Notes under the pieces: generated by a model | What the model saw: only the letters and a program-made list of their open reading frames with translations | Database searches by the model: none | Told to the model about the DNA's origin: nothing | Position numbers and translations under genes: made by a program | Part shown: in pieces, positions 8,967 through 58,483 of the stretch | Numbering within the stretch: the stretch's first letter is position 1 | Layout of the letters: every line of letters starts with the position of its first letter | Source: Promethearchaeota archaeon | GTDB lineage: Archaea > Asgardarchaeota > Lokiarchaeia > Sigyniarchaeales > SOKP01 | Direction: 5' to 3' | NCBI GenBank assembly: GCA_019058295.1 | Contig: JAHPZI010000029.1 | Span: 1 to 58,483, forward strand | DNA: 58,483 nucleotides

Positions 8967-9401
8967 CTAAAAAAAATATTCTTTTATTGTATCTTTAAAA
9001 GGTTGAAATAAATTAATATCTGTAAAATCTTCATTTTTATATTTTTGAATGAAATTTTCTAAGATGGGGGTTGTTTTCAGCAAAAATTTCTGCACATTTT
9101 TATCTGGGTTTTTTTTTTTCTTTTCAATTAATCCATACATAATAATAGGTTCAACAGAATTAGCATCTTTACTTTTTATTTTTGAGAACTTAAAGACAAA
9201 CAATATATTGCCACTTTCTAAATATTCTAAATTATTATTATTAAAGGCGCTCTTTGCAAATGTACTAATTGCCGATATAAACGCACCTCTTAGATCTTTC
9301 TTCTCACCTAAATCCTTTTGAGTTGGTAATTCTTTAAAGGTGTGACTTACTATGGTAAATCCACGAAGTATGAATCCAATTTCATAAATTAATTCTTTTA
9401 T
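8967..9401 (-). CDS. Longin/roadblock-like small protein (144 aa; probable ATA start)
   Basis: The track ORF (8967-9203) extends in frame to IKELIYEIGFILRGFTIVSH...DLRGAFISAISTF...LEYLESGNIL, matching the whole paralog at 9515-9940. An in-frame TGA lies just upstream of the ATA. Confidence 0.75.
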   Translation of the reverse strand: MKELIYEIGFILRGFTIVSHTFKELPTQKDLGEKKDLRGAFISAISTFAKSAFNNNNLEYLESGNILFVFKFSKIKSKDANSVEPIIMYGLIEKKKKNPDKNVQKFLLKTTPILENFIQKYKNEDFTDINLFQPFKDTIKEYFF

Positions 9402-9514
9402 GGAATTTCACTTTTTTAGAATTTTAAATTATCAAAATATTTCTTAAGAAATAATAAAACAATATTTCTATTTAACTTTCATCAATATCAAGAAGGAATC
9501 TCTTCAATAAATTT

Positions 9515-9940
9515 CTATAATCCATATAATTCAAATTCAAAATCTACAGTTCGATATAATTCATTTGTAAAATCTAAATTAGTATATCTTTTAAGGAATA
9601 ATTCTATTAAAGGTTCTACCTTTTTTAAAAAATATTTAACTTGTTTATCTTGTTTTTTCTTTTTTTCAACCAAAGCGTAAAAGATTAGGGGTTCTTTAGA
9701 AGGATTATCTTTTGTCTTAATTTCACTAATTTTAAAAATAAATAAAAAATTCCCTGATTCTAAATATTCTAAAGCATCATTATTATAAGTTTTAGAAACG
9801 AATAAATTTATTGCACTAAAAAAGGAGCCTCTTAAATCATTATGTGGTGCAATGTTTTTTTTACCAGGAATTTCTTTGAAATGGCGATTGACTATTATCG
9901 CCCCACGTAGCACAACACCTATCTCATATAGATCTTTCAA
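9515..9940 (-). CDS. Longin/roadblock-like small protein, paralog of 8967-9401
   Basis: LYEIGVVLRG...DLRGSFFSAINLF...LEYLESGNFLFIFK; beta-beta-alpha-beta-beta-beta-alpha pattern; TTG start. Confidence 0.7.
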   Translation of the reverse strand: MKDLYEIGVVLRGAIIVNRHFKEIPGKKNIAPHNDLRGSFFSAINLFVSKTYNNDALEYLESGNFLFIFKISEIKTKDNPSKEPLIFYALVEKKKKQDKQVKYFLKKVEPLIELFLKRYTNLDFTNELYRTVDFEFELYGL

Positions 9941-10028
9941 TTCCTTTTCAGATATTCCTTATTGTTTAGAATAAAATTTTTATTTTTTTCATAGGTATAT
10001 AACTATTTAGCAAACTTGTATTATAGAT

Positions 10029-55321: not shown

Positions 55322-56146
55322 ATGATTGATAATTTGAAGATTTTCGATTCACATATTCATTATTTGGGGAAATTTAAGAGAAGGGATGAAACTTTAACAG
55401 ACTTTTTAGATAGATTCGGAATTGACAAATCAATTGTCACTGCATTGAACACATCTGCTAATAAAAATTTGCTAATTAGAGATGATATAAATTTTAACGA
55501 AAAGGAATATGCTGAAAAATTATATGCAAAAAGCCAACATAATCACGAAGTAGTTAGAGAATTAATTAAGAAAAATTCAGATAGATTAGTAGGCGTTTAT
55601 TGGTTTAATCCCAGAATTGCCGATGATAACGATTGGAAAACTTTAGAAAAATATATTAAAGATTACAATTTTAAAGGTGTAAAAATTCAGGCTTCACTTG
55701 ATAATTTGAAGATTCCAAATGATTTGTTTGAATTAGCGGAATTTTGTATAGGTTTCGATATTCCACTTTTTATTCATTCTGGACAATCTTTCTTTTTCCA
55801 AGAACCATTTCGCGTCAAAGATATTTATACTTTAGTTAAAAAATATGGAGAGCTCAAATGTGTCATTTTGCATGCGGCTTACACTATGGAATATTGTATT
55901 AGTTGTTTGAAATTTTTTCCTAAATGCTCTAATGTATATTTTGAAACAAGTTTATCAATCCCATATGGGATAAATATTTTGATTAAAGTCATGGGGAACC
56001 ACCGGGTTATGTATGGATCAGATTCACCAGCAGCAACCACACCAGATATAGAAATTAATAAAATTAGAATTCTTGATTTAGATAAAAAAACGTTAGAAAA
56101 TGTATTTTATAATAATATAAGCAATCTAATAGGTGAAATCTCATAA
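55322..56146 (+). CDS. Amidohydrolase_2-family TIM-barrel protein
   Basis: FDSHIH, KGVK, FIHSG, ILH, NVYFETS, YGSDSP. Confidence 0.9.
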   Translation: MIDNLKIFDSHIHYLGKFKRRDETLTDFLDRFGIDKSIVTALNTSANKNLLIRDDINFNEKEYAEKLYAKSQHNHEVVRELIKKNSDRLVGVYWFNPRIADDNDWKTLEKYIKDYNFKGVKIQASLDNLKIPNDLFELAEFCIGFDIPLFIHSGQSFFFQEPFRVKDIYTLVKKYGELKCVILHAAYTMEYCISCLKFFPKCSNVYFETSLSIPYGINILIKVMGNHRVMYGSDSPAATTPDIEINKIRILDLDKKTLENVFYNNISNLIGEIS

Positions 56147-57015
56147 ATCAACAAGATAAATTTAGAATTTTTGACAGTCATCTCCATACCTATGGAAAAT
56201 TCATAGGAGAATCTAAAAATGTGCTTGATTATATGGATAGATTTAACGTAGAGAAAGCAATAATAACAACAATTAATAGAGCAAAATTTTTTCAAAAGAA
56301 CGATAAATCCGGAAATATAAATCCGCTCGAGAATAATATGGCAGATCTCTTAAAAAATTTTAAAAAAGTAATGTTAAAAGGGCAGCTACCTCATCAAGAC
56401 GTAATAGATATTGCAAATAAATCTCCCGAACGATTTTATAAACTTTTTTGGTTTAATCCTAATTTAGAACCTGAGGAAGAAGAATCAAACTACAAAATTT
56501 TAGAAGAACATTTTAAAAAAGGATTCTGCGGCGTAAAAATACATAACATATTTCATATGTTCAGAGTTCCAAGAGATATTCTTAAATTAGTTTCATTTAT
56601 TCAAGAATATAATAAAAATTTGATATTATTTATTCATTCTGCTCCTGATACTTCGTTTTTTAAAGGTGTTTCATGTAGGGATATCGCAAAATTAGCAAAA
56701 AATCAGGAATTTCAGGAATTACGAATAATTGTAGGACATGCTGCCTATAGCATGGAATACAGTATGGATGTAGCATTTAATTTAAAAAAATTTAAGAATG
56801 TTTATTTTGAGACTTCTGCTTCTGCGTCTTTTGGAATTTATAATATATTTAAGGCTGTAGGCTCTAAACGCATTTTATTTGGGTCTGACTCTCCGGTTGT
56901 ATCTCCAATCCAGCTTGAAATCGACAAAATATTGACATTGCCTATTTCTAATGAAGTAAAACAAGATATCTTATATAATAATGTAAATAAGCTACTTGAA
57001 TTTTGTCAAAATTAA
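56143..57015 (+). CDS. Amidohydrolase_2-family protein, tandem paralog; probable ATA start
   Basis: The in-frame extension INQQDKFRIFDSHLH restores the HxH motif; ATAA overlap with the upstream stop; GGTGA at 56132. Confidence 0.88.
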   Translation: MNQQDKFRIFDSHLHTYGKFIGESKNVLDYMDRFNVEKAIITTINRAKFFQKNDKSGNINPLENNMADLLKNFKKVMLKGQLPHQDVIDIANKSPERFYKLFWFNPNLEPEEEESNYKILEEHFKKGFCGVKIHNIFHMFRVPRDILKLVSFIQEYNKNLILFIHSAPDTSFFKGVSCRDIAKLAKNQEFQELRIIVGHAAYSMEYSMDVAFNLKKFKNVYFETSASASFGIYNIFKAVGSKRILFGSDSPVVSPIQLEIDKILTLPISNEVKQDILYNNVNKLLEFCQN

Positions 57016-57274
57016 TTTAAGTAAAAATCCTTATTATGTCATCTTAAATTTACTAAATAATTTATTTTTTTTATTCCCAAATTCAGACTTTAACAAATTT
57101 AAAATATCTTTAACAAATAATCTTATTGTTAAAATAAACTCAATTAAGGTCTATTAAAAGATAAAATTAAATGAAAATCTTATCGTTTTAAATAAAGTAA
57201 AAATAGTAAAAATTAACTTTTAAGAGATTCTTGTGATAATATAAAAATTAATATAGTATAGAGGAAGAACGTCC

Positions 57275-58483
57275 ATTCCATATTTTAAAAAAATTCTTCT
57301 TATTCAAGCTTCTCAAATTCGAGTACCTGGAGAATACTTTTATGGCATACCATATGGTGTTTTATTTCTAAATTCTTATTTGCGTAAGGCAGGCATTGTT
57401 ACTATGATTTTCGATCGACAATTAAATACTTCTCTGAAGAAATTAAAAGAAGTTATTTTAACATATAAGCCCGATGTTATTGGCATTTCTGCTGTGACTT
57501 CTCAAAGTTATGATGCAAAATTGATAATAAAGAAAGTTAGAGAATGGATACCTAACATAATTATCATTGTAGGAGGTGTACATTTTACTGCAGAACCACA
57601 AGATGGTCTCGATTATGGAGCAAATTATGTTTTTCGAGGAGACAGTGAAGAATCTCTTCTTGATTTTATGAATAATGGTCCTCCTAAAGATAATAAAATT
57701 ATTTGGGGTAAGCCTCTGGAAAATCTAGATGATATTCCAAATTTAACTATGGATGATGTTGAACCCTATATCGAAATGCTTCGATGGGGTCCGATATCTT
57801 ATTTTGTTTTAATTGGATCAAGAGGGTGCCCTTACAATTGTAATTTTTGCTTGGGAAAAGACCAGAGGCCAAAGGGAATACGCTATCATTCAATTGACAG
57901 AATTATTGATTTTATCTCTCAAATTGTTGAAAAATTCGATGTCCATACATTTGGATTTTATGATGATATATTTGTTATGAAAAATTCGCGTGTAAGAGAA
58001 TTTTGTGAAAAAATTAAGAAAAAAATCTCAACTCCTCTTAAATTTGAATGCTTTACTCATGCAGGACATGGTGATAGTGAATTATATCAACTAATGCATC
58101 AAACTGGTTTTACTCGCATGTCATTTGGAGTTGAGCATGGAAATGACAGGATTTTATCGATAATGGGAAAAAATATTACTAAAGCAAAAATTGAGGAGAC
58201 ATGCAAACAAATTTATAAGGCGGGCATAAAACTTCATCTCACGTATGTCCTAGGAAATATAACAGAAACAAATAAGACAATAACAGAAACAGTAGATTTC
58301 TCAATTTATCTTCATAAAAAATATAAAGCAAGATCTTATATTTCTTTCATGCAACCATTGCCAGGTGCTCCTATATATAAAGTTGCTGAGCAATATGGCT
58401 ACTATTTACCGAAAAGAAGAATTTTTCTGAATATAGATTTATCTTATATTCCTTTTAATGTTACTGTTAAACATATGATAAAA
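57275..58483 (+). CDS. Cobalamin-binding radical SAM protein; runs off the window edge
   Basis: Not in the track. KILLIQ...PYGVLFLNSYLRKAG...PDVIGISA...IVGGVH...GSRGCPYNCNFC...YDDIF...FGVEHG. The frame opens at 57257 with only ACG/ATT before the conserved N-terminus. Confidence 0.9.
   Translation, partial: MPYFKKILLIQASQIRVPGEYFYGIPYGVLFLNSYLRKAGIVTMIFDRQLNTSLKKLKEVILTYKPDVIGISAVTSQSYDAKLIIKKVREWIPNIIIIVGGVHFTAEPQDGLDYGANYVFRGDSEESLLDFMNNGPPKDNKIIWGKPLENLDDIPNLTMDDVEPYIEMLRWGPISYFVLIGSRGCPYNCNFCLGKDQRPKGIRYHSIDRIIDFISQIVEKFDVHTFGFYDDIFVMKNSRVREFCEKIKKKISTPLKFECFTHAGHGDSELYQLMHQTGFTRMSFGVEHGNDRILSIMGKNITKAKIEETCKQIYKAGIKLHLTYVLGNITETNKTITETVDFSIYLHKKYKARSYISFMQPLPGAPIYKVAEQYGYYLPKRRIFLNIDLSYIPFNVTVKHMIK

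Follow-up and report, generated by a model that had tools for sequence, protein, structure and literature searches.

In bacteria, infC, the gene coding for initiation factor 3 (IF3), and E. coli pcnB start at AUU, and animal mitochondria initiate at AUA and AUU with the help of a tRNA-Met carrying the modification f5C34 and of an altered genetic code. Here we analyze four genes of an uncultured Loki-type (Asgard) archaeon that probably start in a related manner, at AUA or AUU behind a Shine-Dalgarno (SD) motif: a longin-like gene, the large subunit of methylmalonyl-CoA mutase, the second of two adjoining amidohydrolases, and a B12-binding radical SAM gene. They lie on a stretch of 58,483 nt (GenBank assembly GCA_019058295.1, contig JAHPZI010000029.1; hereafter the window), which is the entire 58.5-kb contig C29 of a metagenome-assembled genome (MAG) of 3.2 Mb in 30 contigs, 79% complete and with 31% GC. 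We refer to AUA, AUU and AUC (ATA, ATT and ATC in DNA) as AUH, and to ATG, GTG and TTG as canonical starts.

Non-canonical starts of bacteria are repressed by IF3 (PMC5499595, PMC5472188), and aIF1 is reported to destabilise complexes on non-AUG codons (PMC6237735). In eukaryotes, eIF1 and eIF5 are autoregulated via weak starts, eIF1 limiting its own synthesis by a poor start site (PMC6237735, PMC3326321). In Haloferax volcanii, ribosome profiling assigned ~30% of putative alternative initiation sites to near-cognate codons (PMC7261190), but these are mostly extra or internal sites that were set aside by the authors, whereas the AUH codons of the window appear to be the only conserved starts available to genes of an ordinary kind. 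As in mitochondria, AUH would serve as a regular start in an AT-rich genome, but there is no sign here of a modified tRNA or a changed code, and the initiator anticodon arm of a sister species is standard. NCBI translation table 11 formally allows ATT, ATC, ATA and CTG as initiators for bacteria and archaea; however, these codons are merely listed there, and routine gene callers accept canonical starts only, as the shortened calls described below illustrate. In full-text literature searches, we found no publication in which AUH starts are a systematic feature of Asgard archaea. Judging from the genomes compared here, the AUH habit appears to be a variant of known weak starts that is frequent in the host's lineage.

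The four genes share the same organization, an in-frame stop followed by 28-82 codons of conserved coding sequence devoid of any canonical start. This had been proposed by an earlier reading of the window made from its letters alone (the sequence-only reading), all of whose coordinates for these genes hold. The reading frames are intact (146-564 codons). In confident genes of this genome, the number of genes halves with every ~5 codons by which the first start is removed from the opening stop, so that distances of 28-82 codons with full coding signal are not expected by chance. In each case an SD motif (GTGA, GGTGA, AGGAGG or GAGGA) lies 6-10 nt ahead of an AUH codon, which is the geometry of the genome's canonical starts.

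For comparison we used, besides the genome of the window (G000), two other species of the same genus (G005 and the sister species G007) and the more distant G002 and G006; Loki relatives and non-Loki Asgard genomes (the latter being G064, with 31% GC, and G041) were compared via DNA samples of ~400 kb. The AUH codon and the SD of the four genes are kept in other assemblies at 74-97% protein identity, and more distant orthologs have ATG or TTG at the AUH codon or at most one codon away. The sequence-only reading had named ATG in close orthologs as an outcome that would refute it; instead, it is the closest relatives that keep ATA or ATT, and only more distant ones have ATG. It is quite probable that the four are live genes, translated from the near-cognate codons AUA 9401, AUU 43434, AUA 56143 and AUU 57275.

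The longin-like gene (8967..9401, minus strand), which has no Pfam match, would run from ATA 9401-9399 to the stop at 8969-8967. The GTGA core of its SD (9408..9411, minus strand) lies 6 nt ahead of the ATA, and its TGA doubles as the in-frame stop from which the reading frame opens; the most frequent SD geometry among unambiguous canonical starts is GTGA-N6 (61/876). The first canonical codon of the frame is TTG 9203, codon 69 of the open frame (68 codons in). A tandem paralog (9515..9940, minus strand) with a canonical TTG start at 9940 marks the N-terminus of the family, and the ATA aligns exactly with this TTG. G005 and G007 (96-97% identity) have an identical GTGA-N6-ATA, while ATG or TTG occupies the same codon in 11 orthologs, two of them from G002 and G006 (75%) and nine from as many genomes of other genera. 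Moreover, between G000 and both G007 and G005, the extension from the ATA to the first TTG shows seven synonymous changes and no non-synonymous one (39 vs 156 sites); if changes fell at random over these sites, the chance of all seven being synonymous would be ~1e-5. The longin-like extension evolves as protein, and it is only in this gene that the purifying signal is clear. Directly downstream of the gene, at 8852-9016 (minus strand), there is a short degenerate copy of its C-terminal third with three in-frame TAA, also found in G005 and G007.

The pattern of substitutions bears on the possibility that these genes lost their starts by AT-biased mutation and are now silent or decaying pseudogenes. 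Changes from ATG to ATA or ATT are expected at 31% GC, distant orthologs do carry ATG, and no RNA run is among the 20 runs listed for the locus. But the four frames are intact, the extension of the longin-like gene has changed only synonymously, and AUH has outlasted speciation down to 74% identity in the amidohydrolase and 81% in the mutase. SDs are conserved at the right spacing, and the genes of this genome in which AUH follows an SD have the same coding score as other genes. We consider loss of function quite unlikely.

The second amidohydrolase (Amidohydro_2; 56143..57015, plus strand) is read from ATA 56143; this codon shares bases with the stop TAA 56144-46 of the upstream gene, giving ATAA. 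Its SD, GGTGA (56132..56136, plus strand), is placed 6 nt ahead of the ATA, within the end of the upstream amidohydrolase gene, and the TGA that it contains is in frame. The first GTG of the gene, at 56221, comes past the metal-binding H-x-H motif. The arrangement GGTGA-N6-ATA AAT CAA is kept in five species (the window, G005, G007, G006 and G002), down to 74% identity, and in G002 and G006 there is no ATG until the H-x-H motif, within which the first one falls. Near the position of ATA 56143, ATG or TTG is found in other genera. In the extension, one serine switches from AGT to TCA, the signal of selection here being qualitative.

The large subunit of methylmalonyl-CoA mutase (43434..45113, plus strand), which had been abbreviated as MCM and is not the replicative MCM, is read from ATT 43434, with AGGAGG (43421..43426, plus strand) 7 nt ahead. 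Among canonical starts, GAGG at a spacing of 7 shares the top frequency with a spacing of 9. The frame opens after the stop TAA 43416-18 and has its first ATG at 43665 (codon 83), whereas the Pfam mutase domain begins at codon 44, 39 codons ahead of this ATG. A scan of JGI metagenomes yielded no mutase relative closer than 71%; the closer ones come from a protein search. About 50 orthologs at 62-71% identity have an ATG at most one codon from ATT 43434, and one metagenome ortholog (L165) has ATT and is devoid of an early ATG. At 87-90% identity, three NCBI MAGs keep GGAGG, 10 nt, then ATT ACN ATA CCT. A fourth MAG (81%) has GAGGTGA, 7 nt, then ATA at the same codon; its frame has a TGA four codons further upstream and reaches the PNMYRG motif without any canonical codon. 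The SD is conserved in relatives at 81-90% identity. Gene calls of both Logan and NCBI shorten the mutase to 482 residues, in line with the expectation that gene callers truncate such genes. In four metagenome contigs (L182, L184, L189 and L190), a single open frame spans the mutase and the OB-fold (ChsH2_C) gene upstream of it, pointing to fused forms.

Over 43380-43680, the window shows no difference from a Logan re-assembly of a public run. This speaks to the possibility that the ATA and ATT bases are sequencing or assembly errors, which could be suspected in a MAG that is only 79% complete. The same bases occur in G005, G007, G002, G006, the three NCBI MAGs and the independent Logan re-assembly, and the probability of such errors seems negligible.

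The B12-binding radical SAM gene (57275..58483, plus strand) is read from ATT 57275 and extends past the end of the contig. An SD-like motif, GAGGA (57261..57265, plus strand), precedes it, the GAGG core ending 10 nt ahead of the ATT. From the opening stop TAG 57254, the frame passes ACG 57269 and ATT 57275 before the first TTG at 57380 (codon 42), and the Pfam B12-binding domain begins at codon 29, ahead of this TTG. The sequence ATT CCN TAT TTT is kept in G005, in G007 and in a tandem paralog of G007, the latter having GGAGGA at the place matching the GAGGA motif. The sequence-only reading had left the choice between ACG 57269 and ATT 57275. The ATT is retained in the G007 paralog and stands, while the ACG can be set aside, as the paralog has TCA AGG in place of ACG TCC and the codon is only 4 nt from the SD. 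The two tandem copies in G007 (L036, contig C23, ~7109-9891) are 83% alike, and both lack a canonical start and have ATT.

Canonical codons are present downstream in these genes, and GTG 56221 of the amidohydrolase has a weak GGAG 11 nt upstream. Translation might therefore begin at the first downstream ATG, GTG or TTG and yield the shorter proteins that gene callers predict. Yet a short amidohydrolase would lose its H-x-H metal ligands, the mutase domain 39 residues, the B12-binding domain its first strand, and the longin-like protein 66 of 144 residues. The stretches upstream of these codons also have coding signal and are conserved at the protein level, and we find starts further downstream very unlikely.

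Another way of obtaining an upstream start would be stop reassignment or read-through. This was rejected since no single stop codon is consistently in frame (TGA, TAA, TGA and TAG for the longin-like gene, the mutase, the amidohydrolase and the radical SAM gene, respectively); the longin-like gene moreover has a second stop (TAA) within seven codons, and orthologs start at the AUH position. No fifth gene of the kind was found within the window. ATT 36123 was considered as the start of POR-gamma and discarded, as ATG 36159 already fits the Pfam domain and makes an AUH start needless.

At the scale of the genome, unambiguous starts are ATG in 82%, TTG in 13% and GTG in 5% of cases. The eight TTG and GTG starts listed by the sequence-only reading are real first canonical codons, but their frequency, which had been remarked upon, is ordinary. 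Unambiguous canonical starts give an SD consensus of GGTGA, contained in GGAGGTGA, with its end 6 nt from the start codon; the same motif with similar spacing is present in the Pyrococcus aEF1A mRNA (PMC6237735). When at least 100 open codons follow, the codon at spacing 6 from GTGA is ATG in 48 cases, TTG in 15, ATA in 22 and ATT in 19, while flanking in-frame offsets at these sites have on average ~9 ATA and ~8 ATT.

In a strict test on 2233 genes, we looked for 5-mer SDs at aligned spacing in the part of each gene that separates the opening stop from its first canonical codon. ATA, ATT and ATC were SD-positive in 65 of 2905 instances, compared with 105 of 15213 for other codons (odds ratio 3.3, p=2e-12). 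The rate is 2.2-2.3% for each of ATA, ATT and ATC, and 0.25-0.8% for AAA, AAT, TTA and TAT. Four Loki relatives pooled gave an odds ratio of 2.9 (p=7.5e-4), the signal being strongest in G007, whereas the non-Loki G064 and G041 showed no enrichment (1.35 and 0.84). Two other approaches were abandoned: raw counts of GGTGA-Nk-ATH taken without context of the open reading frame gave no start signal, as coding periodicity dominates, and a weak SD position-weight matrix gave only ~1.5- to 1.9-fold enrichment, so that exact motifs were used instead.

A census with slightly wider motif rules, in which an SD-led AUH had to lie at least five codons ahead of any canonical codon, returned at least 67 SD-led AUH genes, 185 SD-led canonical genes and 1735 canonical genes that lack a strong SD. 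SD-led AUH genes thus make up at least ~3% of genes, which is a floor, and roughly one in four of the starts led by a strong SD. Nine of the 67 candidates lie outside the window and have an ortholog of at least 56% identity in the sampled DNA, and in these the exact aligned codon is AUH or ATG/TTG. In G007 the aligned codon of candidate orthologs is AUH in five of five, with one ATC/ATA swap. In G006 it is AUH in three; there, the longin-like gene has ATG, the ATG of the mutase is shifted downstream by one codon, and the amidohydrolase is not alignable. In G016 the codons are ATG, TTG and ATG (3/3).

The census also helps to evaluate whether the N-termini could be made by frameshift from an out-of-frame ATG or GTG, by coupled re-initiation without a defined start, or by a non-Met tRNA. 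Out-of-frame GTG 9412 and ATG 43453 are indeed nearby, and coupling is conceivable where the amidohydrolase overlaps the upstream stop and the mutase starts 19 nt behind the upstream gene. But GTG 9412 belongs to the GTGA motif, which is spaced as SDs are throughout the genome, and ATG 43453 meets a stop after 16 codons. SD-led AUH genes adjoin an upstream gene no more often than SD-led canonical genes (27% vs 39%), and coupling is not general because the longin-like and radical SAM genes have upstream gaps of 113 and 260 nt. Nor did the search turn up an initiator-like tRNA bearing a different anticodon, and we regard such routes as highly improbable.

Initiation at AUH could proceed as follows. 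Pairing of the SD with the anti-SD would put the AUH codon in the P site, where the initiator Met-tRNA (anticodon CAU) would pair with its first two bases and the third-position mismatch would be tolerated; the protein would begin with Met and be made more slowly than from AUG. AT-biased mutation at 31% GC would repeatedly convert ATG to ATA or ATT, and a strong SD would let such starts survive. The tolerance of the lineage may be linked to the dosage of aIF1, which acts to reject starts other than AUG.

The aIF1 gene was not found in the 79%-complete MAG of the window. In the host's family, 16 of the 18 aIF1 (SUI1) loci examined (L225-L252) have GTGA, a gap of ~9 nt (about three codons) and ATT or ATC, and lack any canonical codon ahead of the zinc knuckle. 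The other two, those of G016 and G013, have GTG. In the sister family, aIF1 starts are mostly TTG, ATG or GTG. Among 30 other Asgard genomes, 25 have a canonical aIF1 start and three have ATA; in the remaining two, the zinc knuckle is reached without a canonical codon, and CTG is a possible start. SD-aligned AUH is more common in genomes whose aIF1 starts at AUH (G007, G006) than in those with a canonical aIF1 start (G016, G032, G064, G041), and these six sampled genomes only hint at a link between aIF1 start type and AUH frequency.

With its own ATT/ATC start, the aIF1 gene might form a feedback loop similar to that of infC. As in infC and pcnB, a near-cognate start with a third-position mismatch lies behind an SD; in the family's aIF1, as in infC (IF3), it is on the gene of a start-proofreading factor, an arrangement that invites autoregulation. 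However, the present host is an archaeon with factors of the eukaryotic type (aIF1, aIF1A and aIF2) rather than IF3, several percent of genes are concerned rather than one or two, and feedback has been inferred only. A family-wide AUH start of aIF1 would also act like the poor start site of eIF1, but in eukaryotes the weak element is the context around an AUG and not the codon, and the archaeal loop is deduced from sequence. We tentatively envisage that the AUH genes, several percent of the total, might constitute a regulon whose output would rise as aIF1 falls, the archaeal counterpart of infC control and eIF1 autoregulation; this is possible, though doubtful.

In the relatives, the core motifs of aIF1 and the anticodon arm of the initiator tRNA look normal; the striking feature is the ATT/ATC start of the aIF1 gene. 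A check of aIF1 for substitutions affecting fidelity had been suggested; none stands out, and the core motifs KRKWG, GGT and LQGDHR are intact in the family. The anticodon arm of the initiator tRNA is standard in G007 and G032, GGGCUCAUAACCC; in the MAG of the window, neither the initiator tRNA gene nor the 16S 3' end was found. Of the relaxed, SD-guided initiation put forward by the sequence-only reading, guidance by the SD is borne out by orthologs, selection and the genome-wide test with its controls, whereas 'relaxed' remains a supposition, with tRNA arm and aIF1 motifs normal. A match to an initiator-like anticodon arm with GAU (tRNA-Ile type) sits in coding sequence and is no tRNA. The initiator tRNA genes of G007 (L254, contig C174) and G032 (L253) seem interrupted and neither is called by ARAGORN; in G007 the likeness to a tRNA ends shortly past the anticodon arm, whereas in G032 it is the 5' part that diverges. 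Both genes may contain introns or be split. Elsewhere in the genome of the window, contig C22 (~30300-33340) carries a tight array of ~30 intron-less tRNA genes, several with an encoded CCA end, which resembles that of a mobile element or virus; scattered tRNA genes in the rest of the genome mostly have introns.

Several points weigh against AUH initiation as presented here. Base identity at the four sites is attested by other assemblies only, and Met as the first residue is assumed. In the radical SAM extension, two synonymous changes stand against three non-synonymous ones, with no clear purifying signal. A second AUH, ATA 43536 behind AAGGAGG 43519-25, could conceivably act as an alternative start of the mutase. 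The 87-90% relatives have, upstream of the mutase SD, a TTG annotated by NCBI as the start, which is absent from the window. This TTG is 1 nt past the stop of the upstream gene in L331 and overlaps that stop in L332 and L333; in these three, the conserved ATT behind the SD is more likely to be the mutase start than the annotated TTG. Frames of at least 30 codons without a canonical start occur in 3.7% of genes and have full coding signal, but over half of the long start-less genes lack a recognizable SD-led AUH, and part of this tail may come from frameshifts or other causes. The raw tail is similar in all Asgard samples, including both non-Loki ones, and because of this its length alone is no measure of the AUH habit of a lineage.

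Asgard genomes have been mined for eukaryote-like proteins, but their routine annotation recognizes only the three canonical starts. If ~3% or more of genes use ATA, ATT or ATC, many published proteins would lack their N-termini, including signal peptides, metal ligands and first strands, or be missed. A lineage that tolerates a third-position mismatch, and in which the gene of a proofreading factor is itself started in this way, would be a natural system to study how start fidelity is tuned in initiation of the archaeal/eukaryotic type. The regulon, if real, would operate in the lineage closest to eukaryotes.

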